Shown here: positions 14,465-42,342 of the stretch, piece by piece
Position numbering within the stretch: the stretch's first letter is position 1
Layout of the letters: each line of letters begins with the position of its first letter
Sequence record: NZ_CP035506.1
Direction: 5' to 3' (one strand)
DNA from: a plasmid
DNA: 64,000 nucleotides
Notes under the pieces: model-generated
Databases searched by the model: none
What the model was told of the DNA's origin: nothing
What the model saw: the letters and a program-made list of their open reading frames with translations, nothing else
Translations under genes and position numbers: made by a program

Positions 14465-14470
14465 GGGGGA

Positions 14471-17774: not shown

Positions 17775-20276
17775 ATGATCCATATCGGAACCTCCCTTAC
17801 CCGCCTGATCGGCGCCGGTCGCGGCGGCAGAAGCGTCACTCCCCCCGCAGAGCCGGAATTCTACCCGGACGTGCCGCCCGTTCCGCTGGCGGCGGCGGGA
17901 GGCTCGCTGAAATTCCCCGAAGGTAACTGGAACATGCATGCCGGGCGGGCGGGCCTGACCGGATGGAAGGGCCTGCTCCATCAGGGCTGGAGTGAGGTCT
18001 TTACCGGCTCCGGCACGCCCTCCGCGCTTTTCGCCATGGTGCGCCTGCCGGTGGACAAGCGGGACGGGCCTTATACAAAGGCAATCCTGGGGCGCGAGGG
18101 CAGCGGCGGAAACCGCATCCGGCTTGCCTATGGCAATCCGAACAACTCCTCCTCCGCCTCCCGCAACCGCTTTCAGGGCTATCAGTACGGCGCGGGGGGC
18201 GCGAGCGTGAACCTGCGCAGCGCTCCCTGGACGGAGGATGCGGCGCTGGTCGTCTTCTGGCATGACGGGACGGACCGGTGGGGGGTGGACTGGTACTCGC
18301 TCCTCGATGGGACGCACCATGCGGGGGAGGTCTCCAGCCTCACCGGGGTGAACCCCTCCGGTGCGGCCCTGTCGGGCTTTACCGTCGGGGGCGCGCAGAA
18401 CATGACGGCCTTCGCCACGGATACGAACCCGCTTGTCGAGGAGTTGTGGGATGGTGAAATTGCGCTCGTCGGCTATCTGAACGGCACGGTCGCTCCGGCG
18501 GAATGGGCCGCACTGGCCCGCGGCGCCCGTCCGCAGGATGTGCTGCCGGTCCCGGCCGTCCGCTGGATACGGGAGCTCGACGGCACGGCGGCCAGCCTTG
18601 CCGCCCCTGCCTGGGCCACGGCAGACCGGACCCGGCCCGCGGTGCCCGTCGCCGATGCCTCCCCCTCTGCCGGGGGGACGATGCTCCTTCCCGGATCGAC
18701 GCTCCGCCCGCAGTCGGCCACGCGCTTCGTCACCTTCGACCAGAGGTCGGCGGGCATGGTCTTCGGGCTGAAGCCGGGGGAGACCGTGGCATCGGTGCCC
18801 TTTGCGGGGCGCGCCTCCGGGCCGGTGGAGATCCGCGTGTTCGAGGCGGAGACCGGCAGGATCGTCCGCGACTGGGTGCCGATGCCCCTTCCGGCGGCCC
18901 CGGAGACCGGCATCTGGAGCGGGCGGGTATCGCTGCCGGAAAGCGCGAACGGCTGGCTTTTCGCCGATGCGCGGCTGGTGGGCGCCCCCGAGGTGGTGGC
19001 CCATGCGCGCAGCGAATTCGGCGTGGGCTACAAGTTCATGATCATGGGGCAGAGCCAGACGGCGATGCCCATGGTGAACATGACGACACGGCTCGCGCTG
19101 GAACCGGGGGCGGCGATGAGCGGCTCTGTCGCGACGCTGGTCAATCTCGGCCTGCGGCGGATCCTCGGCGCGGAGGCGCGGCGTCCGGTGATGGGGCGGA
19201 TCGGCACGGGCGTGGGATATGCGCCGAGCGATGGTTTCGTGACCTTCCTGAACCAGTTCCGCCGGTTGAAGCCGAAGACCCCGGTCATGATCCTCAACGA
19301 GGCGGTCTCCGGTACTTCCATGCGCGCGCTTCTGGCGGGAGAGGTCGATACGGCCACCGACCGGCAATGGGCCGACATCACCGACAAGCTGGATCTCTGG
19401 GGACGGGATGTGACGGCGGTGCTGTGGAACTGGCTGATGAACGAGGGTGCGATGAACGGCAGCAATGTCGTGCCGCTCATGTCGGCGATGTTCCTGCCCG
19501 GTCACGCAGGCGACATGGCCCATTCGCTGGTGCAGGATCTGGAGCCGGGCTGGACGCTCGGCGTGCTGGGCGGCGACCGGGAAAGCCGGATCATCGGGCG
19601 GGAGGGGATGCGCGCGGCCCGCACCGCCTTTGCCCATGACAACGGTTTCACGCTGGGGCCGGTCGTTTCCGATTACCGGATCGAGAATGCAGGCGGCCCG
19701 CATCCGGGCAAGCAGTTCACCAATCCCGGCATCCTGGGCTATACGCCCCCCGAAACCTTCGATCACGGCATCCCCCGCTTCATGCAGCGCATGGGGGTGA
19801 TGGCGCTCCAGACGATCGGCGGGCTTTCCGATGTGGAAGTGCATCCCTGCTACGCCAATCCCCGGTTCAGCGCCGATCGGAGGAAGATCCTCATCGACGT
19901 GGTGGCGGTGAACGGGGGCCGGATCTACAGCCCCGCGCCCACTGCGCTCAGATCGTGGTATGTGAAGGAGGAAGGCGATCTTTCCTTCGTCAGTACGGGG
20001 GAGAAAGGCGCCCAGGCCGTGCTCAACACCTCTGTCAGCCCGCCGCAGGTGGAGATCACCCGCGCCTCCGGGACCTGGGCGCCGGGCGTTGTCGTGCAGC
20101 GCATGGACGATGGTGAGAAGCGGGCCGACAACGATGGCGCGGCCGAGGATACGATCCATGCGGGCGGCCTCTATGAAGCCTGGGCGCAGGATCCGCTGGG
20201 ATTCGGCTTCCCCGTGGTGGGCATGCGGGATGACAGCGGTCTCTGGCGCAATCTGTTTGAAAGTATTGTTTCCTAA
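17775..20276 (+). CDS. Large protein, paralogue A: ConA/LamG-like N-terminal region plus putative SGNH/SASA-like esterase core (GQSQ motif)
   Basis: Shares long conserved blocks with ORF 26714..29203 (GVGYKFMIMGQSQT, VTAVLWNWLMNEGAMNG, MSAMFLPGHAGDMAHSL, HAGGLYEAWAQDPLGFGFPVVGM). First ATG at 17775; the ORF is open upstream to 17313. No clear signal peptide. Confidence 0.6.
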   Translation: MIHIGTSLTRLIGAGRGGRSVTPPAEPEFYPDVPPVPLAAAGGSLKFPEGNWNMHAGRAGLTGWKGLLHQGWSEVFTGSGTPSALFAMVRLPVDKRDGPYTKAILGREGSGGNRIRLAYGNPNNSSSASRNRFQGYQYGAGGASVNLRSAPWTEDAALVVFWHDGTDRWGVDWYSLLDGTHHAGEVSSLTGVNPSGAALSGFTVGGAQNMTAFATDTNPLVEELWDGEIALVGYLNGTVAPAEWAALARGARPQDVLPVPAVRWIRELDGTAASLAAPAWATADRTRPAVPVADASPSAGGTMLLPGSTLRPQSATRFVTFDQRSAGMVFGLKPGETVASVPFAGRASGPVEIRVFEAETGRIVRDWVPMPLPAAPETGIWSGRVSLPESANGWLFADARLVGAPEVVAHARSEFGVGYKFMIMGQSQTAMPMVNMTTRLALEPGAAMSGSVATLVNLGLRRILGAEARRPVMGRIGTGVGYAPSDGFVTFLNQFRRLKPKTPVMILNEAVSGTSMRALLAGEVDTATDRQWADITDKLDLWGRDVTAVLWNWLMNEGAMNGSNVVPLMSAMFLPGHAGDMAHSLVQDLEPGWTLGVLGGDRESRIIGREGMRAARTAFAHDNGFTLGPVVSDYRIENAGGPHPGKQFTNPGILGYTPPETFDHGIPRFMQRMGVMALQTIGGLSDVEVHPCYANPRFSADRRKILIDVVAVNGGRIYSPAPTALRSWYVKEEGDLSFVSTGEKGAQAVLNTSVSPPQVEITRASGTWAPGVVVQRMDDGEKRADNDGAAEDTIHAGGLYEAWAQDPLGFGFPVVGMRDDSGLWRNLFESIVS

Positions 20277-20887
20277 AAGAATACAATAACCGGGATGCTC
20301 CGGGGCAATCCTGATGCGCGTGCAGAAAGACGAAACCCGCCGGCTTGGCGATCTTTCGCCCATGTGAGGAAGGGATTCGGTGCCTGAGAGCGCGCCGCCC
20401 GCTCAGGCAGCCCTTTGGCCGATTCCCGGAAATCCGCCCGCCGTCTTGCAGCGGGCGGATTTCAGCCGCCGTTCTGGGCCAAAGCAGGACTTTCCAAGTG
20501 CTTTCCGGGCGCTCCTGCCGATGCCGCGCCGAATCCGGTGTTCCTTCCCGCCTGTCTCCATGAAGACAGGCAATCTTAATCTTTCTCCCGTACGGAGAAT
20601 CACGCGCCTTAATGCAAGTCTCGGGCGAAACTGGCGAAATATCCCGAATGCCCGCTTTGGCAGTGGGACAGCCCGATGAAAAGGGTTCCACAAGATGGAA
20701 AGCAATGCGCGAGAAAACGCTTACCGAGTGACCGTTTCGCGAAATATTGCCCAATCTTCCGCAGATGAGCCATTCTGCATTGCAGAACATGTCTCGCTTA
20801 TTATTTTTGTTGTGGAAATAAAACCGTAAGTTGTTCACCATGGTTTGATACAGCCATAGATAGAACTACGGAGCATGCGGAGACGAT

Positions 20888-23101
20888 ATGGCGATCAAAC
20901 TTGTAGATTCGGTTGATGATTTGCTTTCGGCTCTTCGCGTCGTGAAGGGCGGAGATACGATCCTTCTGGAAGATGGAGATTATGGATATCTCTACCTTTC
21001 CAGTGGCTTGAAAGGGCAGCTTCCGGAGTATGACAGTACCGTCACAATTGCGGCGCTCAATCCGGGAAAAGCGACCTTCTCCAAGATGGATGTGCGCGGA
21101 GCCAGCAATCTGGCTTTCGAGGGCCTCGATGTCTCCAACTCACTGCAGATCTGGTATAATTCCAGCAATGTGGCGGTCAGAAATTCCACCATCACCAACC
21201 TGACCGTTCGCGATACACAAGGTGCGGACATTTCCGGCAATACGATTGGCGGGGGGAGCTTCGGCCTTGTCCTGCAGGCGGCTTCCGATGTGTCTGTCCG
21301 GGGCAACTATATTCATGATGTGACCACCGATCTGGTTCGGATCGTCGGAAACAGCCATGACGTCGTGGTCGAGAACAACCTTATCTCCGATACGGTCGCC
21401 CGCCCGCCGACCCACCCCGATCTCATCCAGATGTTCGGCCTGAACGGGGCGACGCCGCATGACATCACGATCCGCGGCAATATCCTGCACGACGATCTCT
21501 CCACAGGATCGGTGAGACCTCAGGGCATCTTCATGAACGGCCCGATGGGGGCCACTGGGTTCCAGGATATCCTGATCGAACAGAACCTTATCTGGACGCA
21601 GCATATCAACACGATCTATATCAACGGGGCGGACGGGAATTTCGTCATCCGTGACAATTCCATGATCGCCACGCAGTGGAGCAACGGCGCCAATATCCGT
21701 CTCGCCGGCTGGAACAACGAAGGCATCAGCGTCACCGGCAACGTCTCCCGTGCCATCGGGGACGAGGGGAACGGGACGACGGCCTGGAACAACTACAATT
21801 TCGGGACCGGCAAGTGGTTCAACGCCACCGGCGATCAGACCGACATCTTCCAGAGCCCGCAGTATATCGGCTGGAAGAGCTTCCTGCCTGTCGCCGGATC
21901 GGCCATTGATTTTGGCAGCGGCTACGGCGCTCAGGGAAGGCTGAAGGAACTGCTGGCGGGCGTGGACAACGACTTCGGTGTGACACGCCTGGTAATGGAG
22001 GAAACGGATAACCTCAGCCTCAAGGGGCACAGCAAATCCTGGTTCCGCTTCGCCGACGGCGGCACGCTCGACCTCGACGAGGCGACGGTTTCGCTGACCT
22101 TCTCGGCCAATTCCGCCTCTGGAGCGCGCACCATCCTGTCAAAGGATTCCGCCGGTCTCGATCATGGTTTCTCGGCGACGGTGAACAGCGGAACGCTCAC
22201 CCTCCGCTTTGAGGATGACAGCGGGATCAAGACCATCGTCCATGACGGGATTGCCGCGAAAACCGATTACAATCTCGTCATGTCCTTTGACGATGGCAAG
22301 GCGACGGCCTGGCTGAACGGCCAATCCATCGGGCAGGTGGAGACCGGGATGGACTGGTCCAAGAACGGCTCCGATCTGATCCTCGGCGCCGATGGAGGGC
22401 TTTCAAAATACGGGCCGAGGTCGTTCTTTTCAGGCACCGTCGGAGATCTGCGCATCTATGACCAGGGAATGACGTACAGTCAGCTTTCGGCCCATGTCGA
22501 TGCGCGGGAAAGCTATCTCGCGGCGGTGGAGGCGGCCAAGGACACCTCGCATACGGTATTTTATCACGGCGGGATCACCGACTTCAAAAACACGGTGAGG
22601 GATGCCATCGTCACCGAGACGGATGACAAGTTCTCCACGACGGAAGGAACCGTGGCGCTGAACTTCCGTCCCGAACTGGTCAATGGCGGAAGGGGCCTCG
22701 TCTCACGGGATTCCACCGGGCTGGGGGATGGATTCCACATCGCCATCAGCAACGGCAGCCTCGTCGTCAAATTCGAGGATGACGACGGCACGCAAGCGCT
22801 CCGGTACGAAGGCATCGAACGCTACAAGGATTATTCCGTCGTGGCGAGCTTTGGAAATGGTGTCGCGGATGTGTGGGTGAACAACACGCATCTCGGCCAG
22901 GTCGAGACCAATATGGACTGGACCGACAATTCCGACAGCCTCATTCTGGGAGCGTTGAACTCCAACAGTGCGGCCGGGACGACCTCTGCGATGCACGGGG
23001 CATATTTCGGCGCGCTCAACGGGGTTCTGGTCGTGGACGAAAGCATGACGCCACAGGAGCTGGCAGCCTATATCGACGCCCATCCCCTCATTCTCGTCTG
23101 A
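20888..23101 (+). CDS. Right-handed parallel beta-helix (pectate-lyase-fold) protein with two C-terminal LamG-like domains; candidate secreted EPS glycanase/lyase
   Basis: N-terminal repeats (NSTITNLTVRDTQGADISGNTIGGG, VRGNYIHD, VVENNLISD) typical of beta-helix CAZymes. Two divergent concanavalin-like repeats at the C-terminus. No N-terminal signal peptide. Paralogue of ORF 29300..31594. Confidence 0.75.
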   Translation: MAIKLVDSVDDLLSALRVVKGGDTILLEDGDYGYLYLSSGLKGQLPEYDSTVTIAALNPGKATFSKMDVRGASNLAFEGLDVSNSLQIWYNSSNVAVRNSTITNLTVRDTQGADISGNTIGGGSFGLVLQAASDVSVRGNYIHDVTTDLVRIVGNSHDVVVENNLISDTVARPPTHPDLIQMFGLNGATPHDITIRGNILHDDLSTGSVRPQGIFMNGPMGATGFQDILIEQNLIWTQHINTIYINGADGNFVIRDNSMIATQWSNGANIRLAGWNNEGISVTGNVSRAIGDEGNGTTAWNNYNFGTGKWFNATGDQTDIFQSPQYIGWKSFLPVAGSAIDFGSGYGAQGRLKELLAGVDNDFGVTRLVMEETDNLSLKGHSKSWFRFADGGTLDLDEATVSLTFSANSASGARTILSKDSAGLDHGFSATVNSGTLTLRFEDDSGIKTIVHDGIAAKTDYNLVMSFDDGKATAWLNGQSIGQVETGMDWSKNGSDLILGADGGLSKYGPRSFFSGTVGDLRIYDQGMTYSQLSAHVDARESYLAAVEAAKDTSHTVFYHGGITDFKNTVRDAIVTETDDKFSTTEGTVALNFRPELVNGGRGLVSRDSTGLGDGFHIAISNGSLVVKFEDDDGTQALRYEGIERYKDYSVVASFGNGVADVWVNNTHLGQVETNMDWTDNSDSLILGALNSNSAAGTTSAMHGAYFGALNGVLVVDESMTPQELAAYIDAHPLILV

Positions 23102-23307
23102 AGCGGTTCCCCCATGATGCAGCGGTATTCTGGGGGATCATTCCGGGGGACGAACCAAGCAATGCCTGTTCCCAGGGGAATGCGGCCGATGCAGTTGCCG
23201 CAAGTGATATATTCGCATTCCTTCCGGCAGATAAGGCCGGCGGGTTTGACGGGTCTGCGGTTTTAAAGCGGCAGATCCCGGTCCTGACAGTATCGGAACG
23301 ATAGGTG

Positions 23308-23535
23308 TCAGAGATCGATCAGTATCCTGCCCCGCAATTCGGGCGGACAGCCCCGTCCACAGACCGAATTCTCAGGCCGATATGCACTGGCGTCCGGGCC
23401 CATCATGAGGCCCCCTATGACAAAGGCGATGAGCAGCCAGATGGTGGCTATCTTGTCCTGTCGCTCGAATTTGGTGAGCGAGGTGATGAACACAATCACA
23501 AGCCCTGCAAGCAGAAGTGAAACGACCGCCATCAT
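23308..23535 (-). CDS. Small two-TM membrane protein (possibly PLDc_N-like)
   Basis: 75 aa, two hydrophobic helices, isolated in an intergenic region. Weak call. Confidence 0.35.
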   Translation of the reverse strand: MMAVVSLLLAGLVIVFITSLTKFERQDKIATIWLLIAFVIGGLMMGPDASAYRPENSVCGRGCPPELRGRILIDL

Positions 23536-24111
23536 TTTCCGATCACCTTTGCCAAGACAGCTTCCCGAAGCCCCGGTTGCCGTAATACCGGTGCCCCGTG
23601 AGGGGCGCCCGTCCGCGCCATCGTTCGTGCCTGACCTCGGCCCCTGCGGGGGCCGGAGCCTCTGTCGTGCTGCGCGGATACCGCTCTGTTTCCGCTGAAT
23701 TTCACGTCCTGCACGCCATCCTTGCGGTCCTGAGGAGTCCGGCCCAGTCCGGTCCAGTCCCGCCCGAAAACCGCCGGACGGCTGTCGGGCAGGTCGGGGG
23801 ACAGGCCCGGCTTCTGTCTATCATGAGAGCGCCTTTTGCGCCAGCAGGCAATACCTGACCGCACCTGCCAAAGAAGGATCCGGGGTGGGATAGGCCGGCC
23901 TCATTCGCGCGGCCTGGAAATCGCCGGTCGAAGCCACGCTGCAGGGCAGGCATGGCCGTGAACTGCCGAAGAAGGCGGCGCTTTTCCCATGGGGTGTTGT
24001 CGGGACAGCCTGTATCCGCCACCTGTAGTTGTGGCGATTGATCTTGTGCGGCAGCCTGATATTCAGAACGAGGCCGGACATCCAGACCGGCAGGATGAAG
24101 GAACCGACCCA

Positions 24112-24723
24112 GTGCCGGCAGATAACAGCTCCTCTTCTTCCCAGGGTGCCCACAAGAAGCGCACCTCGAAACCGAAGCGCCTTCTGCGCCTCATCCTGAG
24201 CACCTTCGATCCGCGCGCCTGGGTGCATATGCTGAAGGTGGTCAATTACTACAACTACACCCATGTCACGCCCATGCGGACCCTGCGGGGGCGGATCGGC
24301 CCGCGTCCCGAGATCGCGCCGAACGCCTCCATTGCCAATCCCGAGAACATCACCGCCGGAAAGGTGCTGCATCTCGGCTCCGGCACCTTTCTCTGGGCCG
24401 GCCCCTCGGAGAAGGGGCGTGTGGTCATCGGAGACGACGTGACCTTCGGCCCGCGGGTCATGCTGACGGCCGCGAACTACCGTTTCAACGATGGCCAGCC
24501 CGTGCGGTCCAATGCCATGGACGAAAAGGAGATTTTCATAGGCGATGATGCCTGGATCGGCGCCTATGCGATCATCCTGCCGGGCGCCCGGATCGGCAAG
24601 GGTGCGGTGGTGGGGGCAGGTTCCGTTGTCACCGGCGACATCCCCGACTGGGCCATTGCGGTCGGTGCGCCGGCCAAGGTCGTGGGTCAGCGCCGGATCG
24701 CCGCCGTCAGGCCGCCTGCGTGA
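24112..24723 (+). CDS. Hexapeptide-repeat acetyltransferase (WcaF/Mac-like)
   Basis: LbH repeats ([44 protein letters not shown]). GTG start at 24112 with AGGA RBS chosen by analogy to its paralogues; the first ATG is at 24229. Confidence 0.65.
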   Translation: MPADNSSSSSQGAHKKRTSKPKRLLRLILSTFDPRAWVHMLKVVNYYNYTHVTPMRTLRGRIGPRPEIAPNASIANPENITAGKVLHLGSGTFLWAGPSEKGRVVIGDDVTFGPRVMLTAANYRFNDGQPVRSNAMDEKEIFIGDDAWIGAYAIILPGARIGKGAVVGAGSVVTGDIPDWAIAVGAPAKVVGQRRIAAVRPPA

Positions 24724-25017
24724 CTTACGGGTCGGTGTGCTTCAGGGGGCGTCCTTCAAGGGGCGTGGCGCGAGGTTGTGTGACGCGGGCCAGCATGCCT
24801 TCGGGGACCCGTCATCACAGGGTCTGCTGGACGCTTTCCCCCGCCTTGCCATTATGGCCGCGCTACCGCATGACTGTGCGACCTTCGCCTCGAAAAGCCG
24901 GCCCCTCGCAATACTGACCGCCAGGACGCAATGACCTGGCCAAGTCGTATTCCGGCCCGGCCCCTCTTCCTGCCGCTTGCCTTTCCGGCTGGCCTCATTC
25001 CGATCAAGGGTTTCTGC

Positions 25018-26445
25018 ATGATCACTCCCGTCCTGCTCTGTGGTGGTTCCGGCACGCGTCTGTGGCCCTTGTCGCGCAAGTCGTTCCCCAAGCAGTTCGC
25101 CCCCCTGATCGGGGAGACATCGCTCTTTCAGGCTTCGGTGACCCGTCTTTCGGGAACGGAGTTCACGCCCCCCGTGGTGGTCACGGGATCCGACTTCCGC
25201 TTCATCGTCACCGAGCAGATGGATGCGATCGGCGTGAAGCCGCGCGCCATCCTGATCGAACCGGCGGCGCGCAACACCGCCCCCGCCATTCTGGCCGCCG
25301 CGCTCTGGCTGGCCAGAACCGACCCCGATCAGCCGATGCTGGTGGCGCCCTCGGACCATGTGATCCCGGATGCGAAGGCCTTCACCGCCGCCGTGGCCCG
25401 CGGGATGGGGCCGGCGCGGGCGGGGCAGCTCGTCACCTTCGGGATCCGGCCCACCCATGCCGAGACGGGTTACGGCTGGCTCGAACTGGCCGAAAGTTCA
25501 GCCGAAGCGCCCGTGGCGCTCTCCCGCTTCGTCGAGAAGCCGGACCGCGAACGGGCAGAGGAAATGCTGGCCGCGGGCAACTTCCTGTGGAACGCGGGCA
25601 TCTTCCTGTTCACCCCCGCCACGCTGATCGCGGCTTTCGAGGCCCATGCCCCCGCCGTGCTCGCCCCGGTGCGCGCGGCACTTGAGGGCGCGAAGACCGA
25701 CCTTGCCTTCCTGCGGCTGGGGCCGGAAGATTTCGGCGATGCGCCCGACATCTCCATCGACTACGCGGTGATGGAGAAGGCGCAGAACCTGACCGTGGTG
25801 CCCTTTGCGGCCGGCTGGTCGGATCTGGGCGGCTGGGACGCGGTCTGGCGCGAGATGGGGCCGGATGCGGCGGGCGTCGCCACCGGGGGCGACGCGCTCG
25901 CCATCGACTGCGAGAACACGCTGCTGCGGTCCGAGACGCAGGGGCTCGAACTGGTGGGCATCGGGCTCAAGGACACGATCGTCGTCTCCATGCAGGACGC
26001 GGTGCTGGTCGCCGACCGCTCCCGCGCGCAGGAGGTCAAGCAGGCCGTGGCCGCGCTGAAGAAGAAGGGCGCCAAGCAGGCCGAGAGCTTCCCGCGCGAC
26101 CACCGCCCCTGGGGCTGGTTCGAGACGCTGGTTCTGGGCGACCGCTTCCAGGTGAAGCGGATCGTGGTCCATCCCGGCGCGGCGCTTTCGCTGCAGAGCC
26201 ATTTCCACCGCTCCGAACACTGGATCGTCGTCTCCGGCACGGCACAGGTGACGGTCGACAACGAGGTGAAGCTGGTGACGGAGAACCAGTCGGTCTACAT
26301 CCCGCTGGGCGCCGTGCACCGGATGGAGAACCCCGGCAAGGTGCCGATGGTGCTGATCGAGGTGCAGACCGGCTCCTATCTCGGCGAGGATGACATCATC
26401 CGCTACGACGATGTCTATGCCCGCGGTCAGGGCGCCAAGGGCTGA
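25018..26445 (+). CDS. manC: Mannose-1-phosphate guanylyltransferase / mannose-6-phosphate isomerase (type II PMI-GMP)
   Basis: N-terminal nucleotidyltransferase motif LLCGGSGTRLWPLSRKSFPKQF and C-terminal cupin (HPGAALSLQSHFHRSEHWIVVSG). Confidence 0.9.
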   Translation: MITPVLLCGGSGTRLWPLSRKSFPKQFAPLIGETSLFQASVTRLSGTEFTPPVVVTGSDFRFIVTEQMDAIGVKPRAILIEPAARNTAPAILAAALWLARTDPDQPMLVAPSDHVIPDAKAFTAAVARGMGPARAGQLVTFGIRPTHAETGYGWLELAESSAEAPVALSRFVEKPDRERAEEMLAAGNFLWNAGIFLFTPATLIAAFEAHAPAVLAPVRAALEGAKTDLAFLRLGPEDFGDAPDISIDYAVMEKAQNLTVVPFAAGWSDLGGWDAVWREMGPDAAGVATGGDALAIDCENTLLRSETQGLELVGIGLKDTIVVSMQDAVLVADRSRAQEVKQAVAALKKKGAKQAESFPRDHRPWGWFETLVLGDRFQVKRIVVHPGAALSLQSHFHRSEHWIVVSGTAQVTVDNEVKLVTENQSVYIPLGAVHRMENPGKVPMVLIEVQTGSYLGEDDIIRYDDVYARGQGAKG

Positions 26446-26713
26446 ACCGGCAGGGGGCGCCGATAAGCGGACGGCCCCCGACCGTGCTGGCCTCCTCCCT
26501 GCTGCGACGCGGCCATGAGAAACGTGCCCGGGAAACGCACCGGGGAATGCCTGCGCTGCCTGAGGCAGGCGGCGGTTCTGCACCGTGATCGGCCCTTGGA
26601 CGACTGGCACAACGCCACGGGCCTGTCGCCGGAGCCTCCGGCCCGGGATGTGTCGGAGCCTGGATCGCCGGAGCCCGGATGCGTCGGAGATTGCGTCAGG
26701 GCCCCGGCTGGCA

Positions 26714-29203
26714 TCAGGGGGCTGCGAGACGCATCTCGAACAGCGGACGCCAGCGGCCCTTGCCGTCCTTCATGCCGACTACGGGAAATCCGAAGCCCAA
26801 CGGATCCTGTGACCAGCTTTCATAGATGCCGCCTGCGTGGATCGCATCTTCGGCCGCGCCATCCTTGTCGGGGCGCTTCTCGCCGTCGTCCATGCGGCGG
26901 ACGAGCGTGCCGGCGGGCCAGAGCCCGGTGGCCCGTGTGATCCTGACCTGCGGGGGGGTGACGGAGGTGTCGAGTTCGGCGATCGCCCCCAGCGCGATGG
27001 TGGGAACGAAGGCCGCGTCCTTCCCCGGCTCCTTCACATACCACGATCTGAGCGCAGTAGGCGCGGGGCTGTAGATCCGGCCCCCGTTCACCGCCACCAC
27101 GTCGATGAGGATATGTCTCCGGTCCCTGGTCAGGCGGGCATTGGCGTAATGGGGGTGCACGGCGGTATCCGGGATCTCGCCGATCGTCTGGAGCGCCATC
27201 ACCGCCAGCCGCTGCATGAAGCGGGCGCTGCCATGGTCGAATGTCTCCGGCGGGCCGTAACGGCCCTGTTCGGGAGTGTTGAACTGCGCCGGAGGATGCG
27301 CCCCGCCGCTGTCGCCGATCCGGTAGTCCGAAACGACCGGCCCCAGCGTGAAGCCGTGCTGCTGGGCAAAGGCCGCGCGGGCCGCGCGCATCCCCTCCCG
27401 CCCGTTGACGCGGCTTTCCCGGTCGCTGGCCAGCACGCCGAGCGTCCAGCCCGGCTCCAGCTCGGCCGTCAGCGAATGGGCCATGTCGCCTGCGTGACCG
27501 GGCAGGAACATCGCCGACATGAGCGGCGCCACGTTCTTGCCGTTCATCGCGCCCTCGTTCATCAGCCAGTTCCACAGCACCGCCGTCACATCCCGTCCCC
27601 AGAGGTCCAGCTTGTCGGTGATGTCGGCCCATTGCCGGTCGGCCCGGGTGGTTTCCCCCCCGAGCAGCCGTGCCATGGAGGTGCCGCCCACGGCCTCGTC
27701 GATCAGCATGAAGGGGGTGCCGGGTTTCAGGCGGCGGAACTGGTTCAGGAAGGCGACGACCCCGTCGCCCCCCGCCTGCGGGCCGGCCCCGATCCGGCCC
27801 ATGACGGGCCGGCGCGCCGCATCGCCCAGCTCCTCCCGCGCTCCCAGCGCAAGGAGCCGGGCCACGGAGCCTGACATGGGCGCGTCGGGGGTGAGCCGCC
27901 GGGTCGTGTTGTCGAGCGGATAGGACGTCTGGCTCTGTCCCATGACGAGGAACTTGTAGCCCACGCCGAATTCGCTGCGTGCATGGGCGATCACCCCGGG
28001 CGCTTCCGCCAGCCGCGCATCGGCAAAGAGCCAGCCGGCCTCGCTTTCGGGAAGCGGCAGGCTCCCCGACCAGCGGTTGCCCTGCAGCGGTCCCATCGGG
28101 GTCCAGTCCTGCACCACCTTGCCCGTGGCCGCCTCGATGACGCGAAGCTCCACCGGGCCGGAGGCCTCGCCCGAGAAGGGCACGTCTCTCTCGCGCTCTC
28201 CCCGGTGCAGGCCGAAGACCATCCCCGCCGATTTCTGCTCAAGGGTGACATATTCCGTCTCCGACTGGCGGCGGAGGGTCGAGCCGGGAGTCGTTGCTTC
28301 GGGAGCGGCGGCGGTTTCCGCCACGCTGGCGGTGGGTGCCGTGCCCTCTCCCGGAGCGGGGGAGAGGCTGCCGGGTGTTCCGTCGAATTCCCGCAGGAAG
28401 GTGAGGTCCGCGGCGGGCAGCACGGCCCGGAACGGCGCGCCGCGGGCGATGCGCGACCAGTCCTCCGGGGGGGGAAGCGGCCCGGTGACGATGCCGACGG
28501 CGCCGATTTCCCCGTCCCACAAAGGGTCACGCCCCGGATTGGCCGGCCCCCCGAAAGCGGTGAGGCTGCCCCAGCCGCCGATGTTGAAAGGCGCGATCTC
28601 CCCGCTGTCCGTGACCCCGGTATCCGTGAGGGGTGGCCCGGGATGGCGGTCGCCGGTCCGGGGGGAATACCAGTCGATCTGCCATGTGCCCGTCCCGTCG
28701 TGCCAGAAGACGACAAGGGCCGCCTCCTCGTCCCAGAGGGCGCTTGCCAGGTCCACGGCGCTGCCCCGCCCTCCCATCTGGGAGGCGGTGAAACGGTTGC
28801 GGAGTTCGGGGACGGAATGTCCGGGATTGCCCAGGCCCAGCCGGAACCGGTTCCCGCCCTTGCCCGCATGGCCCATGATCCCCTTCGTCAGCCGTCCGTC
28901 GCGCTTGTCGAGCGGCAGGCGCAGAAGGGCGAAGATCGCCTGCGGACGCCCCGATCCGGCCAGGGCGATGCCCTGCCCGGGCTGAAGCAGCAGGCCCCGC
29001 CCCGCCCGGTCGGATGTCCAGTTTCCTTCCGGGAAGCGGACCGATCCGCCGGGAGCGCCGGGATCGACGGCCGGAACCGGCGGATAGGGGGAGGCGGCGG
29101 AGAGCGAAGCCCCCCCGGCAAGGCCCATGAGCAGCGCGAGTGCAAGACACCGGCGGAAGCGGCGCAGAAAGGCGGAAGGCGTCATGAAGGCGGAGGGTGT
29201 CAT
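26714..29203 (-). CDS. Large secreted protein, paralogue B of 17775..20276 (SGNH/SASA-like core, GQSQ motif)
   Basis: Signal peptide LALALLMGLAGGASLSAASP. The same conserved blocks as paralogue A. The start region contains an 18-bp tandem duplication encoding MTPSAF twice. Confidence 0.65.
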   Translation of the reverse strand: MTPSAFMTPSAFLRRFRRCLALALLMGLAGGASLSAASPYPPVPAVDPGAPGGSVRFPEGNWTSDRAGRGLLLQPGQGIALAGSGRPQAIFALLRLPLDKRDGRLTKGIMGHAGKGGNRFRLGLGNPGHSVPELRNRFTASQMGGRGSAVDLASALWDEEAALVVFWHDGTGTWQIDWYSPRTGDRHPGPPLTDTGVTDSGEIAPFNIGGWGSLTAFGGPANPGRDPLWDGEIGAVGIVTGPLPPPEDWSRIARGAPFRAVLPAADLTFLREFDGTPGSLSPAPGEGTAPTASVAETAAAPEATTPGSTLRRQSETEYVTLEQKSAGMVFGLHRGERERDVPFSGEASGPVELRVIEAATGKVVQDWTPMGPLQGNRWSGSLPLPESEAGWLFADARLAEAPGVIAHARSEFGVGYKFLVMGQSQTSYPLDNTTRRLTPDAPMSGSVARLLALGAREELGDAARRPVMGRIGAGPQAGGDGVVAFLNQFRRLKPGTPFMLIDEAVGGTSMARLLGGETTRADRQWADITDKLDLWGRDVTAVLWNWLMNEGAMNGKNVAPLMSAMFLPGHAGDMAHSLTAELEPGWTLGVLASDRESRVNGREGMRAARAAFAQQHGFTLGPVVSDYRIGDSGGAHPPAQFNTPEQGRYGPPETFDHGSARFMQRLAVMALQTIGEIPDTAVHPHYANARLTRDRRHILIDVVAVNGGRIYSPAPTALRSWYVKEPGKDAAFVPTIALGAIAELDTSVTPPQVRITRATGLWPAGTLVRRMDDGEKRPDKDGAAEDAIHAGGIYESWSQDPLGFGFPVVGMKDGKGRWRPLFEMRLAAP

Positions 29204-29299
29204 GAAAACAGGCTCCTTTCCCAGCCTTTATGACGCAGCCTCACTCGCTTTCAAGGCGAATGAGGCTGAGTGTTTCACCTATCGCGAGATCGTGCGACG

Positions 29300-31594
29300 T
29301 CAGAGCAGCAGATGCGCCTCCGCGCCCAGCACATCGGCGAGTTCTGCGGGGGAGAGGCCGCGGTCATAGACGGCGAAGCCGGAGATCGCGCCGTCGAAGG
29401 CCCATCGCAGCGCATCCTGGGTTCCGGCGGTGCTGCGGGAATTGTCGGCCCCGACGATCAGGGCCTCGGAGTTCTGCTGCCAGTCGATGCCGGTCTGCAC
29501 CTGACCGATGAGCGCATTGTCGAGCCAGACCTGCCCGATGCCGCCGCCGAAGGCGATCTGCAGGGCGTGGCCGGTCCCGGCCTCTATGCCCTCGTGTCGG
29601 ATCATGGCGGTGGTGCGGCCATCCTCGAAGGCGATGTGCAGGGTGCCGCCGCTGATCCAGGCGCCAAGGCCGTGGCCGGTGCCTTCGGCATCCTTGGAGA
29701 AGAGCGCGCGGTTGCCGTCGACGCGGTCGGCGCTGAAGCCGAAGGCGATGGTCGCCTCTGGCAGGGCGAGGGCGGGGTCATGCGCAATGGCCGTGACCGG
29801 GTCCAGCCGCTGGGCCAGCTTCTCCGGCAGCACGAGGTTGCCCGACAGATCGAGATCGCGCAGCCCCGCAAGCCGGAGGGCGGGGCCGGCGCCGGAGCCG
29901 GGGGAGACGGGGATTTCTGCGCCCAGCACATCGGCGAGTTCTGCGGGGGAGAGGCCGCGGTCATAGACGGCGAAGTCGGAGATCGCGCCGTCGAAGGCCC
30001 ATCGCAGCGCATCCTGGGTTCCGGCGGTGCTGCGGGAATTGTCGGCCCCGACGATCAGGGCCTCGGAGTTGTGCTGCCAGTCGATGCCGGTCTGCACCTG
30101 ACCGATGAGCGCATTGTCGAGCCAGACCTGCCCGATGCCGCCGCCGAAGGCGATCTGCAGGGCGTGGCCGGTCCCGGCCTCTATGCCCTCGTGTCGGATC
30201 ATGGCGGTGGTGCGGCCATCCTCGAAGGCGATGTGCAGGGTGCCGCCGCTGATCCAGGCGCCAAGGCCGTGGCCGGTGCCTTCGGCATCCTTGGAGAAGA
30301 GCGCGCGGTTGCCGTCGACGCGGTCGGCGCTGAAGCCGAAGGCGATGGTCGCCTCTGGCAGGGCGAGGGCGGGGTCATGCGCAATGGCCGTGACCGGGTC
30401 CAGCCGCTGGGCCAGCTTCTCCGGCAGCACGAGGTTGCCCGACAGGTCGAGATCGCGCAGCCCCGCAAGCCGGAGGGCGGCCAGCAGCTCCCCCGGAAGG
30501 TCCCCCGGAAGGTCCCAGGGCGGGGACGTGATCCCTTCCCCGGCCAGAAGTTCCGCCAGCTTGTCGAGCGCACCGAAACCGGCGGCGGGCCCGTCGGGAT
30601 CGCGCAGAAGGAAATCCCGCCAGTCGCCGCCCGCCCCCTGAAAAAGCTCCGCGGCGGCCTTGTAGCCCTTGTAGAGATAGTTCTCCCCGATGGTGGAGGA
30701 TTTGGTTTCGTCCAGGATGGAACTGGCGAGGTTGCCCTCCACCGTCACACCGGAATTGTCGAAGCCATTCTTGAGGGTCAGGCGGATCACGCCGCCCTTG
30801 AAGACCTCCGGCCCGGCGATGAGGGAGTTGTTCAGAATGAAGACGTTCTCCTGCCCGCCGTCGATATAGATCGTGTTCGGGCTGCGGACGGAAACGAGGT
30901 TGTCCTCGATCAGGATGTTGCGGAACCCGGTCTCCTGCGGGCCGGACAGGAAGATGCCCTGCGCGATGATCAGGCCGGTCGCCGGATCGTCGTAAAGGTA
31001 GTTGCCCCGGATGATGATGTCATGGGGGGTCATGCCGTCATAGCCGTAGATCTGGATGAGGTCGGGGTGGATGTCGGGCGTGGCCGCCACGGTATCCCAC
31101 AGGACGTTGTTCTCGATCAGGCCGTTGTAGCTGTTGCGGCTGATCTGGATCAGGTCGGCGCCCGCGCGTTCAAAGACATTGTCCGCGATGGTGAAGTCCG
31201 ACACGGAGAAGAGGTTGAGGGTGTATTTGCCCTCCGAGACATGGTTGCCGGTGATCGTGGCGCCCGCCACGTCGCGGAAGTAGAGCGCGTGCCCCACACT
31301 GTTCGTCACCGCGATGTTGCTGGAGAAGGAGGCGCGGAATTCGCCCGTCATCGTCACCTGATCGAAGGTCAGGTTCTGGGCGTCCCGGATCGTCACCGTC
31401 TCGAAACGCGCGCCCCCCGGCGTGGCGGAGGTGATGGTGACGGGGCTGTCATAGGGCAGGACATTCGGTCCGTATCTGCCTTTCAGGTTGAGCGCGCCGT
31501 AATCGCCATCCGCAAGGACGATGGTGTCGCCTCCCGCTGCCGACTTCAGGGCGGCAAGAAGCCCCTCGGTATCGGATACATGGATCGTGGCCAT
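29300..31594 (-). CDS. Beta-helix protein with two near-identical C-terminal LamG-like domains; paralogue of 20888..23101
   Basis: N-terminus MATIHVSDTEGLLAALKSAAGGDTIVLADGDYG parallels MAIKLVDSVDDLLSALRVVKGGDTILLEDGDYG. The C-terminal 199-aa unit is repeated twice, nearly exactly. Confidence 0.75.
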   Translation of the reverse strand: MATIHVSDTEGLLAALKSAAGGDTIVLADGDYGALNLKGRYGPNVLPYDSPVTITSATPGGARFETVTIRDAQNLTFDQVTMTGEFRASFSSNIAVTNSVGHALYFRDVAGATITGNHVSEGKYTLNLFSVSDFTIADNVFERAGADLIQISRNSYNGLIENNVLWDTVAATPDIHPDLIQIYGYDGMTPHDIIIRGNYLYDDPATGLIIAQGIFLSGPQETGFRNILIEDNLVSVRSPNTIYIDGGQENVFILNNSLIAGPEVFKGGVIRLTLKNGFDNSGVTVEGNLASSILDETKSSTIGENYLYKGYKAAAELFQGAGGDWRDFLLRDPDGPAAGFGALDKLAELLAGEGITSPPWDLPGDLPGELLAALRLAGLRDLDLSGNLVLPEKLAQRLDPVTAIAHDPALALPEATIAFGFSADRVDGNRALFSKDAEGTGHGLGAWISGGTLHIAFEDGRTTAMIRHEGIEAGTGHALQIAFGGGIGQVWLDNALIGQVQTGIDWQHNSEALIVGADNSRSTAGTQDALRWAFDGAISDFAVYDRGLSPAELADVLGAEIPVSPGSGAGPALRLAGLRDLDLSGNLVLPEKLAQRLDPVTAIAHDPALALPEATIAFGFSADRVDGNRALFSKDAEGTGHGLGAWISGGTLHIAFEDGRTTAMIRHEGIEAGTGHALQIAFGGGIGQVWLDNALIGQVQTGIDWQQNSEALIVGADNSRSTAGTQDALRWAFDGAISGFAVYDRGLSPAELADVLGAEAHLLL
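29322..30480. repeat. Two near-identical 562-bp copies spaced 597 bp apart (29322-29883 and 29919-30480); in-frame tandem duplication inside the beta-helix gene
   Basis: The copies differ at only a few positions on direct comparison. Six-frame ORFs 29508..29966/30105..30641 and 29602..30012/30199..30573 are pairwise near-identical. Period 597 bp = 199 codons. Confidence 0.9.
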
Positions 31595-31672
31595 GGACTG
31601 TCTCCTTCGTTGAAGAAGACAGTCTGGGACCGAAATGAGGCTCCTTTGTGGCGGGAGCGATCTTGGACGAGA

Positions 31673-32803
31673 TCAGTTCTGCCGGGCGGGGCTGGCGGTG
31701 GTCCGGGTCCGCATCGGCTTGCCGTTCAGCAGGAATTCAAGGAGCGGCGACGGCTTGATGACATGGCGGTGCAGCGCGAAGACGATCACATAGGTAATGG
31801 CCGCGACGACGAAGAAGGTCGAATAGGGGCCGAGGCCGAGGGGGCGCAGCGCGAAGGCCACCGCATAGATGACCAGGAAGTGCATGATATAGACCGAATA
31901 GACATATCCTGCCGCCTTGGAGAGCCAGGTGGGACGATTCAGGAACCGCCGGAAGACGGCCATGAAGAGCGCCACCGCGGTTACGGTGCAGAAGGCCTTC
32001 GCCACGATCCGAACCACATCGCCCGCGGCGCCGGGCAGGCCGATCTTCACCCCCGCGACCGCCACCAGGATGCCGAGCACGAGGGCCGGAATGCTTACCG
32101 ACTGGAACCGGTCCGACAGCGCCGGATAGGCGAAAAGGATCATCCCCGTTATGTAGAAGGGCCAGTAATACATGGTCGTGGGGCCGATCCATGCGAGAGG
32201 CGTTGCTTCGAGCAGCGGGTCGAGGGCGACCTGATAGCCGACCCGGAGGGTCAGGCTGGCGGCCGCGATGGCAAGGGCGAGCAGCAGGATGACCGCCGTC
32301 GGCGGCAGCGATGCGAGCCGCGCGGCGATCCGTCCCCCCGGCTTCGAAAGACGCTGGCCAAGGGCGATGAGCGTGGGAGCCGTCGCCACGAAGAAGAAGA
32401 GGGTGAGCAGGAACCACAGATGCAGGTGCCAGACGCCCGGCCCCTTCAGGCGCGCGCTTTCCGGGTTCAGGATGGCGGACAGCGGGACCGGGCCATTGTG
32501 ATAGGTGGCCACGAGCCAGTTGGTGATCGGATTCAGCAAAACGAGGCCCGTTGCCAGAGGAACCAGAAGAGCAACCGACCGCCGCCGCAGGAAATCCCCC
32601 GCAGCATATCGCTGCAGCATCATTGCGGCGAAAAATCCTGAAACCAGGAAGAAAAGGCTCATCCGGAAATATCCCGATGTCACCGCGATCCAGCGCAGCC
32701 CTTCGGGCCGGTCGAGCGTCGTGACATGGACGAGAATGCCGTAGAGCATCGCGAAGGCACGCAAAGCGTCGAGGTAGTAGAGCCGGCCGGGGGAAGAGCT
32801 CAT
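31673..32803 (-). CDS. Acyltransferase_3 family membrane O-acyltransferase
   Basis: N-terminal motif YYLDALRAFAMLYGILVHV, multi-pass membrane protein. Confidence 0.75.
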   Translation of the reverse strand: MSSSPGRLYYLDALRAFAMLYGILVHVTTLDRPEGLRWIAVTSGYFRMSLFFLVSGFFAAMMLQRYAAGDFLRRRSVALLVPLATGLVLLNPITNWLVATYHNGPVPLSAILNPESARLKGPGVWHLHLWFLLTLFFFVATAPTLIALGQRLSKPGGRIAARLASLPPTAVILLLALAIAAASLTLRVGYQVALDPLLEATPLAWIGPTTMYYWPFYITGMILFAYPALSDRFQSVSIPALVLGILVAVAGVKIGLPGAAGDVVRIVAKAFCTVTAVALFMAVFRRFLNRPTWLSKAAGYVYSVYIMHFLVIYAVAFALRPLGLGPYSTFFVVAAITYVIVFALHRHVIKPSPLLEFLLNGKPMRTRTTASPARQN

Positions 32804-40551: not shown

Positions 40552-42342
40552 ATGAGCGACGGGACTACATCTCCTCAGGCCCCTTCGGGAAGCAACGCCT
40601 ATCGCGCAGCGCTCCGCAGATTGCGGGGCACCTTTCTGATGACGGGCTTCTTCAGCGCGGTGATCAACATCCTGATGCTGACGGGGCCGCTCTACATGCT
40701 TCAGGTCTATGACCGGGTGCTGGGTTCGGGATCGATCGCGACCCTGCAGGGGCTCTTCCTGATCGTGGTGATCCTCTACGCCTTCATGGGGCTTTACGAA
40801 TTCCTCCGTTCGCGGCTGCTCGGCCGGGCGGCGATCCGGCTCGATCAGGAGGTGGGACCGACCGCCTTCCGCGCCTGGCTCCGTTCGGGCGGGCAGCAGG
40901 CCACACGGAAACCGGGCGCATCGCCCCTGCCGCTGGCCGATCTGGGTACGGTTCGCGGGTTTCTCTCCTCACCCGCGATGGGGTCGATCTTCGATGTGCC
41001 GTGGATCCCGCTCTATCTCGGCCTGCTGTTTCTCATCCATCCCTGGCTCGGCTGGCTGACGCTGGCGGGGGCGGCCATCGTGGCGCTGGTGGCGGTGCTG
41101 GGCCGGCGCCTGACCCGCGCCCCGCAGGAGGCTTCTGCCGTGATAGAGGGGGAGGCGCGCGCTTTCTCCGAACAGGGCAGGCGCAATGCCGAGCTGATCG
41201 AGGCGATGGGCATGGAGCGCGGCGTGACGGAGCGCTGGCAGCAGGACCATGCCCGTGCGCTGGCGACGGGCCAGGGGGCGAGCAATGTGTCGGAGGTGAC
41301 GGGCGCCTTCTCCAAATCCTTCCGCATGCTGCTGCAGTCGGCCATGCTGACGGTGGGGGCGCTGCTTGTCCTGCGCCATGAGATGACGGCGGGGATGATC
41401 ATCGCCACCTCCATCCTCTCGGGGCGGGCGCTGGCGCCGGTGGACCAGATCATCGCCCAGTGGCGGATCATCGGGGCGGCGAGCCTTGCCCACAAGCGGC
41501 TCATCGCCTTCTTCGAAAAAGCTCCGCAGGAGCCGCGTCCCATCGGCCTTCCGCAGCCCACCGGCAAGGTGGTGGCGAACCGGCTGACATGCCTCGGCCC
41601 CGTGCCTGGAGCGGGGGGGGAGCGGCCGCGGATGCTGAACCAGGTCAGCTTCGCGCTGGAGCCGGGCGACGGGCTGGGCGTCATCGGCAATTCCGCGGCC
41701 GGCAAATCCACCCTCGCACGGCTGATCGTCGGTGCCTGGAAACCCGATGGCGGCGATATCCGCTTTGACGGTGCGACCCGCGACCAATGGGATCCGGAGG
41801 TTCTGGGACGCGCGGTCGGCTACCTGCCGCAGACGGTGGAACTGCTTCCCGGAACCATCCGCGACAACATCACCCGCTTTGACCCGGCGGCCCGGGACAA
41901 CGACATGATCGCGGCCGCCAGGCTGGCCGGTGTGCATGACATGATCCTCGCGCTGCCCGAAGGATATGGCACGAAGGTGGGCATCCCCGGCCAGCCGCTT
42001 TCCGGCGGCCAGGTACAGCGGCTCGGCCTCGCACGGGCGGTGTTCGGCGGGCCGCGGCTCATCGTTCTGGACGAGCCGAATTCCAACCTCGACGCGGCGG
42101 GAGAGGCGGCGCTTGCCCAGGCGATCCATGCCCTCCGCGCCGGCGGCGCCACGGTGATCCTGATGACCCATCGTACCAGCGCGCTGGCCGAGGTGAACAA
42201 GATCATGCTGCTGTCCGCCGGCAATGTCGTGAAGTTCGGTGACCGGGACGAGGTGCTGCGTGGCCTGTTGCTGCGCCCGGTTCCCGACACCGGGACTGGC
42301 GGTAACCAGATGCCCGGCATCACCGCGGGAGGCCAGCAATGA
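40552..42342 (+). CDS. prsD: Type I secretion system ABC transporter (PrtD/PrsD family, permease + ATPase)
   Basis: 6-TM N-terminal domain, Walker A GNSAAGKST, ABC signature LSGGQVQRLGLAR, Walker B LIVLDEP. Confidence 0.85.
   Translation: MSDGTTSPQAPSGSNAYRAALRRLRGTFLMTGFFSAVINILMLTGPLYMLQVYDRVLGSGSIATLQGLFLIVVILYAFMGLYEFLRSRLLGRAAIRLDQEVGPTAFRAWLRSGGQQATRKPGASPLPLADLGTVRGFLSSPAMGSIFDVPWIPLYLGLLFLIHPWLGWLTLAGAAIVALVAVLGRRLTRAPQEASAVIEGEARAFSEQGRRNAELIEAMGMERGVTERWQQDHARALATGQGASNVSEVTGAFSKSFRMLLQSAMLTVGALLVLRHEMTAGMIIATSILSGRALAPVDQIIAQWRIIGAASLAHKRLIAFFEKAPQEPRPIGLPQPTGKVVANRLTCLGPVPGAGGERPRMLNQVSFALEPGDGLGVIGNSAAGKSTLARLIVGAWKPDGGDIRFDGATRDQWDPEVLGRAVGYLPQTVELLPGTIRDNITRFDPAARDNDMIAAARLAGVHDMILALPEGYGTKVGIPGQPLSGGQVQRLGLARAVFGGPRLIVLDEPNSNLDAAGEAALAQAIHALRAGGATVILMTHRTSALAEVNKIMLLSAGNVVKFGDRDEVLRGLLLRPVPDTGTGGNQMPGITAGGQQ

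Follow-up and report, generated by a model that had tools for sequence, protein, structure and literature searches.

Carbohydrate esterases of the CE20/SIAE group (XacXaeA/XAC1771, Fl8CE20_II, PpCE20_II and SIAE) and of the SASA/CE6 group (NanS and 1zmb) carry an SGNH domain flanked by β-sandwiches, and the published CE20 core consists of such a domain between two β-sandwiches (PMC12313940). Here, we analyse a 64,000-nucleotide (nt) stretch of plasmid sequence from Haematobacter (record NZ_CP035506.1; the whole stretch is hereafter “the window”), in which positions 17,775 to 31,594 contain two gene pairs, each encoding a large protein with a similarly flanked SGNH-type domain and a second protein made of a right-handed β-helix followed by two LamG domains. 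On balance, and by a modest degree, we favour the reading that each pair combines a de-O-acylase with a secreted β-helix depolymerase or modifier and acts on the cell’s own exopolysaccharide (EPS). Like the CE20 and SASA enzymes, the large proteins have a Gln beside the (here putative) nucleophile Ser of Block I, followed by the Gly of Block II, and their D...HP and RLA positions are collinear. They differ from these enzymes in giving no significant sequence match, in a Block III that reads W-[NQ]-W-G-T, in lacking an Asp or Asn at the second position before the His, and in carrying an extra N-terminal LamG domain but no inserted ancillary domain. Moreover, it is in EPS biosynthesis loci and the late regions of phages that genes of the large-protein family are found, and not in loci for glycan utilisation.

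ExoK and ExsH of Sinorhizobium meliloti are GH16 glucanases, not β-helices, and in peptidoglycan an esterase must remove O-acetyl groups before glycan-cleaving enzymes act. As set out in part of PMC1403797, acetyl and succinyl groups control the cleavage of succinoglycan by ExoK and the type I-secreted ExsH, and PlyA and PlyB of Rhizobium leguminosarum are exported by PrsDE. According to the same part of that article, these glycanases are encoded with EPS genes and process the cell’s own EPS, ExsH, PlyA and PlyB being type I-exported, which is the likeness to the pairs described here; no dedicated esterase partner is described for them there. The PatA/PatB/Ape1 system resembles the window in that acyltransferases and an SGNH esterase are encoded together, and differs in that it acts on another polymer, its esterase Ape1, from the GDSL-2 branch, contains an inserted carbohydrate-binding module, and there is no β-helix partner (PMC9487903 for the gene association and for Ape1). 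Azotobacter AlgE epimerases and EPS-locus lyases such as Vibrio RbmB are only 17-18% identical to the β-helix proteins of the window, which carry two LamG domains instead of the R-modules of AlgE. Finally, phage tailspike deacetylases with an SGNH domain (Acinetobacter phage Aristophanes, Pan3) are virion-associated receptor-modifying esterases (PMC8471582, PMC5380687), and the Pan3 tailspike (9vyh) is a structural match to the model of large protein 2 (E 2.2e-7). In contrast to these, the window copies have no tail-attachment region, the large-protein family has no PHROG match, and tblastn with large protein 2 as the query found no match among 50,697 phage records.

Two gene pairs on either side of manC

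The first pair lies on the + strand, where the gene for large protein 1 (833 aa; 17775..20276) is followed by that for β-helix protein 1 (737 aa; 20888..23101), whereas on the − strand the gene for β-helix protein 2 (764 aa; 29300..31594, read 31594->29300) precedes that for large protein 2 (829 aa; 26714..29203, read 29203->26714). Between the pairs, both on the + strand, are a hexapeptide-repeat acyltransferase gene (23989..24723; Pfam Hexapep, E=8e-18) and manC, which encodes a mannose-1-phosphate guanylyltransferase / mannose-6-phosphate isomerase (24931..26445; Pfam NTP_transferase and MannoseP_isomer). Thus, all four open reading frames (ORFs) are present where an earlier note on this DNA had placed them, and its account of a permuted gene order around manC and an acyltransferase is correct.

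Pairwise alignment of the two pairs by BLASTP showed that both kinds of protein are paralogous, as the earlier note had proposed. The large proteins share 498/803 identities (62%, E=0), and the blocks previously singled out as near-identical, GYKF..MGQSQT, VTAVLWNWLMNEGAMNG, MSAMFLPGHAGDMAHSL, GFTLGPVVSDYRI and HAGG.YE.W.QDPLGFGFPVVGM, all fall inside this alignment; the LamG domain is the most diverged part, at 41-57% identity. For the β-helix proteins, full-length identity is 36% (E=9e-139). Because the divergence of the two pairs is unequal (62% versus 36%), the whole module is not the product of a recent duplication. Applied to pairs that differ in divergence and in gene order, the term “duplicated module” is an oversimplification.

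The + strand ORF of large gene 1 opens already at 17313; the stretch from 17313 to 17775 does not look coding-like, and the start was set at 17775 because orthologues conserve the N-terminus MIHIGTSL. Two long antisense ORFs, 17232-20363 (−) and 29270-32641 (+), are likely high-GC artefacts since they fail the GC3/GC2 coding filter.

Two features of these genes bear on their history. A gene-conversion-like patch connects the inverted large paralogues, with 88% DNA identity over 372 nt between 19357-19728 and 27271-27642; within this patch (aa ~520-600), third-codon-position identity is 85-93%, compared with 40-60% elsewhere, and a metagenomic orthologue (P0001) looks mosaic between both large-paralogue types. 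In addition, GC content is 57-60% over β-helix gene 1 and the 888-nt gap that follows it (20001-24000), against 68-70% on either side, which suggests that the history of this gene differs from that of its neighbours.

Fold, family and candidate catalytic residues of the large proteins

The AlphaFold model of large protein 2 has a predicted local distance difference test score (pLDDT) of 81 and a predicted template modelling score of 0.84. It comprises a signal peptide, a LamG-like jelly-roll (~aa 45-295; 28319-29071), a β-sandwich (~325-400; 28004-28231), an α/β SASA-like domain (~401-680; 27164-28003) and a C-terminal β-sandwich (26717-27151), with all domain coordinates approximate and on the − strand. 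The plan of large protein 1, a LamG-like jelly-roll, a β-sandwich, an SGNH/SASA-like esterase-type domain and a C-terminal β-sandwich, is taken from this model of its 62%-identical paralogue. Foldseek found its best match in the Protein Data Bank (PDB) in the CE20 acetylesterase XAC1771 (7kmm, E 1.6e-14), with further matches to 8f9p (1.4e-12), 9h4u (1e-10), 9ega (4e-8) and the SASA protein 1zmb (4e-4); the solved neighbours include mammalian sialic-acid esterases, Fl8CE20_II, PpCE20_II and a cyanophage tailspike. For the N-terminal domain, the matches are to LamG and pentraxin folds. The large proteins thus show an α/β/α SGNH fold that is nearest to SASA/CE20 and has β-sandwiches on both sides. 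The hydrolase fold that had been proposed from the GQSQ block is therefore borne out by structure prediction, the closest solved structures being CE20 and sialic-acid acetylesterases.

Sequence searches place this fold in a family that has escaped annotation. A word-indexed search of 5.8 billion protein clusters returned 18 relatives of the large proteins, the named ones all being Haematobacter “hypothetical protein” entries, and a search of 185,579 species genomes matched only Haematobacter and one Rhodobacterales metagenome-assembled genome (MAG). An exhaustive profile search raised the number of cluster representatives to 433 at E<=1e-3, with 137 at E<=1e-30; a length of 1000-2200 aa is common among these members, with the module often at or near the C-terminus. 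For distant members, the cluster records supply hardly any names or taxa. The match of one long relative, P0117, in phage records was limited to a short “carbohydrate esterase” segment of Microcystis phages. No NCBIfam or PHROG entry scored above threshold with the large proteins, and neither they nor the β-helix proteins have a curated annotation, as anticipated when both families were called unassignable. Judged from sequence and fold comparison, the large proteins are a distinct unannotated sequence family within the SGNH/SASA superfamily. What is new is this family, with its altered Block III and Block V and an architecture that EPS loci and phages have in common, whereas the kinds of enzyme it resembles are already known.

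Residue conservation was counted over 111 diverse relatives, some only ~22% identical, and the family profile was mapped by hhalign onto an alignment of genuine SASA enzymes, SASA being the sole family tested in this way and picked from the fold result. The two align over 322 collinear columns (E 9.6e-4), in which Ser, GGT, Block III, Asp, His-Pro and RLA are matched in turn; the alignment takes in the C-terminal sandwich too. With a single SASA sequence the comparison is not significant, and marginal significance is reached only with the SASA alignment. S424 is present in 111/111 relatives and corresponds to the catalytic Ser of GQSNM, the G and Q of which are matched by G422 (106/111) and Q423 (109/111). 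G507 (106/111) corresponds to GGT, W546 (107/111) aligns with the WYQGESN segment, and D626 (108/111), H636 (109/111) and R665 (100/111) match the D of MDIG, the His of IHP and the R of RLA, respectively. The sites of large protein 2 are encoded on the − strand at 27929-27940 (GQSQ), 27932-27934 (Ser424), 27683-27685 (Gly507), 27326-27328 (Asp626) and 27296-27298 (His636), and the candidates of large protein 1 on the + strand at 19053-19055 (putative nucleophile Ser427), 19671-19673 (Asp633) and 19701-19703 (His643).

Block I can be recognised, GQSQ aligning to GQSNM by both hhalign and hmmsearch. In the model, strand 401-422 leads up to Ser424, the first residue of helix 424-431, this being the usual position of an SGNH nucleophile, and the blocks follow each other in the canonical S-G-N-H order (S424, G507, Block III at 544-550, H636). 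The suggestion that the GQSQ Ser is nucleophile-like is strengthened by its invariance, its place at a strand-to-helix junction and its alignment with the catalytic Ser of GQSNM.

Large protein 2 begins with a Sec-type signal peptide (aa 1-38; 29090-29203). In place of a signal peptide, large protein 1 (17775-17800) and many relatives, long fusions included, have an N-terminal motif, M-x-[IL]-G-[ILF]-[SG]-L, which occurs in 26/157 Met-starting family members, with variants such as MIHIGTSL, MIQIGLSL and MKLGFSLSL. A PEP-CTERM/VPLPA-CTERM sorting tail was ruled out by inspection of the C-termini. RTX repeats were likewise looked for and are absent from the four window proteins.

The β-helix proteins and their proposed export

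The β-helix model (pLDDT 91) shows a right-handed parallel β-helix of ~340 residues (~aa 1-340 in β-helix protein 1) followed by two LamG domains, in agreement with the earlier description of these proteins. Pfam Beta_helix is above threshold in both; Laminin_G_3 is above threshold only in the 29300-31594 protein, the LamG domains of its paralogue being seen by the model and the fold search. The two LamG domains of β-helix protein 1 are 38% identical to each other, and those of β-helix protein 2 are 98.9% identical because of a 597-nt in-frame tandem duplication with 99% DNA identity (29300-30520; copies starting at 29319 and 29916). This repeat points to a recent duplication or homogenisation, or is possibly an assembly effect.

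Comparison with characterised β-helices gave closely spaced figures: 28.2 for the AlgE4 epimerase, 27.6 for the Dettilon tailspike, 27.4 for the PL9 pectate lyase Pel9A, 27.1 for a GH87 glucanase, 26.7 for a PL6 alginate lyase, 26.4 for the VPS lyase RbmB and 26.3 for the PfbA adhesin. The label “glycanase” given to these proteins in the earlier note is thus not established, the fold being as similar to a C5-epimerase and to lyases as to hydrolases. Weak sequence matches are confined to the N-terminal cap common to PL6 lyases, with no PF14592 match over the catalytic region. Mannuronan C5-epimerases (AlgE A-module / AlgG) have a catalytic DPH(D/E) motif; neither β-helix protein contains DPH. 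The family does conserve nine invariant polar residues at roughly regular spacing, including H176-P-D178 (21413-21421, +, in β-helix protein 1; the HPD of β-helix protein 2 is at 31061-31069, −), and this regularity suggests a putative catalytic groove.

No signal peptide was found in either window protein or in any of the 33 β-helix family members inspected, and all 33 begin directly with the β-helix cap. Many C-termini are short and hydrophobic (HPLILV, AHLLL), β-helix protein 1 ending in ...AHPLILV and β-helix protein 2 in ...EAHLLL; seven homologues have RTX repeats, and the RTX-bearing members end in DDFFFT. The window encodes a type I secretion system (40552..43700, +), made of a PrtD-type ABC permease/ATPase (40552-42342; NCBIfam TIGR01842, 644 bits, cut-off 510) and a HlyD-family adaptor (42339-43700; TIGR01843, 340 bits, cut-off 209), with Pfam in agreement. 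That this PrtD-type system exports the β-helix proteins is a reasonable inference.

Locus context and the roles of the two pairs

By its gene content, the window as a whole is an XrtD (VPLPA-CTERM) exosortase-type EPS locus. The XrtD exosortase, with an EpsI domain, is encoded at 55848..57452 (+; NCBIfam TIGR04152, 710 bits, cut-off 400). The EPS genes comprise those for a priming sugar transferase, Wzx- and Wzy-like proteins, a chain-length determinant, a kinase-like ATPase, a polysaccharide export protein, a TPR protein, an XrtA/PEP-CTERM system-associated ATPase, glycosyltransferases, a pyruvyl transferase, an AMP-ligase and a short-chain dehydrogenase, alongside the PrtD-type transporter and its adaptor. 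As the earlier note had counted, there are seven acyltransferases, four of the Acyl_transf_3 (AT3) type and three of the hexapeptide type; a stand-alone AT3 membrane O-acyltransferase gene (31673..32803, −; Pfam PF01757, E=8e-29) lies directly upstream of, and co-directional with, β-helix gene 2 and large gene 2. The window proteins are 99% identical to those of Haematobacter massiliensis CCUG 47968, and the arrangement is identical in H. missouriensis at 91-93% identity.

Several other features of the window were recorded. ParA-like and RepB-like partition genes open it (95-2984), which makes a plasmid or chromid the probable location of the EPS locus; in Alloyangia pacifica, the related XrtD locus is plasmid-borne as well (NZ_CP022195). 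Just past the exosortase gene are a Tn3-family transposase gene (58082-60967, −) and an IS4/5 transposase fragment (61905-62264, −). A FrhB/FdhB-like (F420 hydrogenase beta-type) protein, an odd redox-type member for an EPS locus, is encoded with the polysaccharide pyruvyl transferase (38919-40193, −, and 34344-35522, −). An AMP-dependent ligase (635 aa, with its N-terminal half unmatched) and a short-chain dehydrogenase adjoin the acyltransferases (13721-16378, −) and hint at activation of an unusual EPS acyl substituent. Three sizeable ORFs with good coding statistics, 3263-5215, 11593-12807 and 54130-55653 (all +), have no NCBIfam match and no Pfam match at the curated cut-off, 11593-12807 giving a marginal amine-oxidase match and 54130-55653 a sub-threshold Wzi-like one. 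A promoter and terminator scan gave hits at chance level only, and an Rfam search of the window gave no match.

The pairing of an esterase-like protein with a β-helix protein recurs in two other Rhodobacterales lineages. In the Rhodobacterales MAG, a 37-38% relative adjoins, and is divergent from, a β-helix homologue, with two hexapeptide acyltransferase genes and a methyltransferase gene close by. On the Alloyangia pacifica plasmid, a 29% relative belongs to an xrtD locus that also has genes for export, a flippase-like protein, pyruvyl transferase and glycosyltransferase, ~5 kb from a β-helix/LamG protein distantly related to those of the window; the Alloyangia homologues too are flanked by an XrtD-type exosortase. 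A third Haematobacter paralogue lineage adjoins an AT3-SGNH acyltransferase, MurA/MurB-like genes, glycosyltransferases and a sugar dehydrogenase; next to a 51% relative are genes for a glycosyltransferase, for a type I secretion pair and for an AT3 protein. Overall, homologues apart from those of the MAG and Alloyangia adjoin acyltransferase genes of the AT3, AT3-SGNH and hexapeptide types, glycosyltransferase genes and type I secretion genes. In addition, long relatives (1406-1542 aa) occur in phage late regions on three independent contigs (L009, 10001-14446; L010, 10001-14629; L012, 6105-10325), near tape-measure, tail, endolysin and lysozyme genes: in an IMG/VR provirus, one follows genes for tape-measure, tail, tail-fibre and lysis proteins, and two are by endolysins. 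Their C-terminal 780-800 aa form the complete LamG, sandwich, SASA-like, sandwich module, and their N-terminal halves match no Pfam or PHROG family; from the N-terminal extensions of long members, Pfam and PHROG gave no more than fn3 repeats in one protein and a single unannotated PHROG in a second. Together, these gene contexts suggest that the large-protein module works on surface polysaccharides.

In the reading that we favour, each pair would provide two extracytoplasmic enzymes with the cell’s own multiply O-acylated, pyruvylated EPS as their target. The large protein would be a carbohydrate O-acyl esterase whose LamG domain holds the polymer while the SASA/CE20-like SGNH domain strips ester groups, with Ser424 of GQSQ acting as nucleophile, His636 as base, and Gln423 and Gly507 forming the oxyanion hole as in SASA enzymes. 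Removal of O-acyl groups from nascent or released EPS would come first; the β-helix enzyme, having left the cell via the PrtD-type type I system and gripping the polymer by its LamG modules, would cut the de-acylated backbone as a lyase or hydrolase, or modify it otherwise. Both proteins would jointly set acylation pattern, chain length and release. Precedents are the control of succinoglycan cleavage by acyl groups, the PrsDE-exported PlyA and PlyB, and the Ape1 esterase of peptidoglycan O-acetylation. What the analysis shows is the paralogy, the folds, the conservation of residues, the recurring gene pairing, the type of locus and the relatives in phages; esterase activity, substrate, β-helix chemistry, export route and the cooperation of the two proteins are inferred. 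Since LamG is the most diverged part of the large paralogues, different specificities would fit the two pairs, which probably recognise different acyl groups or linkages.

A number of results weigh against this reading. For the large proteins, nothing in Pfam is above threshold, SASA (PF03629) reaching 14.2-15.5 bits against a cut-off of 24.8, with no match to large protein 1 and only 2/28 diverse members matching at E<=1; phmmer and two profile searches of PDB sequences with the family gave nothing significant (best profile E 1.4); and the hhalign probability is only 22%, a weak statistic. At the candidate active site, Block III (H)QGE, which orients the Block I Gln (PMC9487903), is replaced by W-[N/Q]-W-[G/L]-[T/M]-[N/S]-[D/E/N], with Trp at the Q position in 107/111 relatives and Thr at the E position in 72/111. 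CE20 enzymes have Asp or Asn two residues before the Block V His (PMC12313940), whereas this residue is Gly in 86/111 relatives and DxH is absent; the only invariant Asp, D626, is ten residues upstream of His636 and aligns with the upstream SASA Asp. The canonical Ser-His-Asp envisaged earlier is thus not seen, and of the proposed geometry it is the fold and the placement of the Ser that stand, since residues 626-656, including His636, have pLDDT <50, too low to read the Ser-His distance; this is partly because of a ~22-residue subfamily insertion there, after the His, which homologues such as P0014 and P0017 lack. Large protein 1 and many relatives have no recognisable Sec signal peptide. For the second proteins, the β-helix fold does not separate lyase, hydrolase, epimerase and adhesin, RTX repeats and the DPH motif are both missing, and the window yielded no gene identified as part of a uronic-acid pathway, which leaves lyase or epimerase chemistry without substrate support. 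Finally, the third Haematobacter paralogue has no β-helix partner within 10 kb.

Four other readings were considered. The large proteins could be O-acyl transferases that receive an acyl group across the membrane from a stand-alone AT3 protein and place it on the polymer, on the model of PatB with PatA, AlgX with AlgI, or the SGNH domain with the AT3 domain of OatA/OafA. SGNH-fold proteins do act so in such systems (PMC9487903), the locus has four stand-alone AT3 genes, one of them directly upstream of the second pair, and other members of the large family neighbour AT3 genes. We nevertheless hold this to be rather improbable: every one of the nearest folds belongs to an esterase of the SASA/CE20 branch, with no PatB, OatA or AlgX among the 50 listed Foldseek matches, and the block order is canonical, whereas AlgX/AlgJ/PatB1-type O-acetyltransferases have a circularly permuted H-S-G-N order (PMC9487903). 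Moreover, two homologues adjoin AT3-SGNH fusions that already have their own transferase domain, and hydrolysis is favoured over transfer because the surroundings of the phage-borne versions, outside the cell, offer no acyl donor. ExoZ and similar stand-alone AT3 enzymes function in the absence of an SGNH partner. A different division of labour, which we find doubtful though slightly easier to entertain, would make the β-helix proteins polymer-level modifiers such as AlgE-type C5-epimerases, with the esterase-like proteins editing acylation independently; AlgE4 has the highest of the comparison figures given above, set against the missing DPH motif.

The pairs could also be domesticated or remnant phage depolymerases directed against foreign glycans, such as competitors’ capsules or nutrient polymers, and not against the cell’s own EPS. 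This would agree with the full-length relatives fused to long N-terminal regions in phage late-gene clusters, with the atypically low GC of β-helix gene 1, and with a locus that appears plasmid-borne and has transposases nearby. On the other hand, the genes are inside the operon structure for EPS biosynthesis and are 91-93% identical between two Haematobacter species, the pairing is found in XrtD and other polysaccharide loci of unrelated genera, and the window has no phage structural genes. One or both proteins might, alternatively, be non-catalytic surface or matrix lectins or adhesins built from LamG and β-helix modules; the near-invariance of the SGNH-block Ser, His, Asp, Gln and Gly among the 111 relatives and the nine invariant polar residues of the β-helix family speak against it, such conservation being typical of active sites. 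Given the conservation of the locus and these invariant polar residues, we regard a foreign-glycan role as unlikely and a purely adhesive one as very unlikely.

Returning to self-directed EPS editing by an esterase and a β-helix enzyme, a wider and clearly more tentative proposal can be made. The LamG and SASA-like proteins might form an unrecognised carbohydrate-esterase family with a non-canonical active site (GQSQ, a Trp Block III and no Block V acid), common to XrtD-type and other polysaccharide loci and to phage late-region proteins that may be tail spikes. The Haematobacter pairs might then edit the cell’s own EPS, de-acylation licensing cleavage by the type I-secreted enzyme, and the M-x-I-G-x-S-L motif might be the sign of a route of export or anchoring that has gone unrecognised.

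Should the activity be confirmed, the large proteins would represent a carbohydrate-esterase family that is new, overlooked by current annotation and at least 433 sequence clusters in size. They would also allow a genetic approach to the ways in which bacteria edit their own EPS in acyl decoration and size, properties that control biofilm texture, phage susceptibility and host interaction. Their pairing with a type I-secreted β-helix enzyme leads to a testable model in which cleavage is licensed by de-acylation. The presence of the module in phage late regions suggests that enzymes modifying surface glycans are exchanged between host and phage, and makes its phage-borne versions candidate receptor-modifying enzymes for phages of Rhodobacterales.

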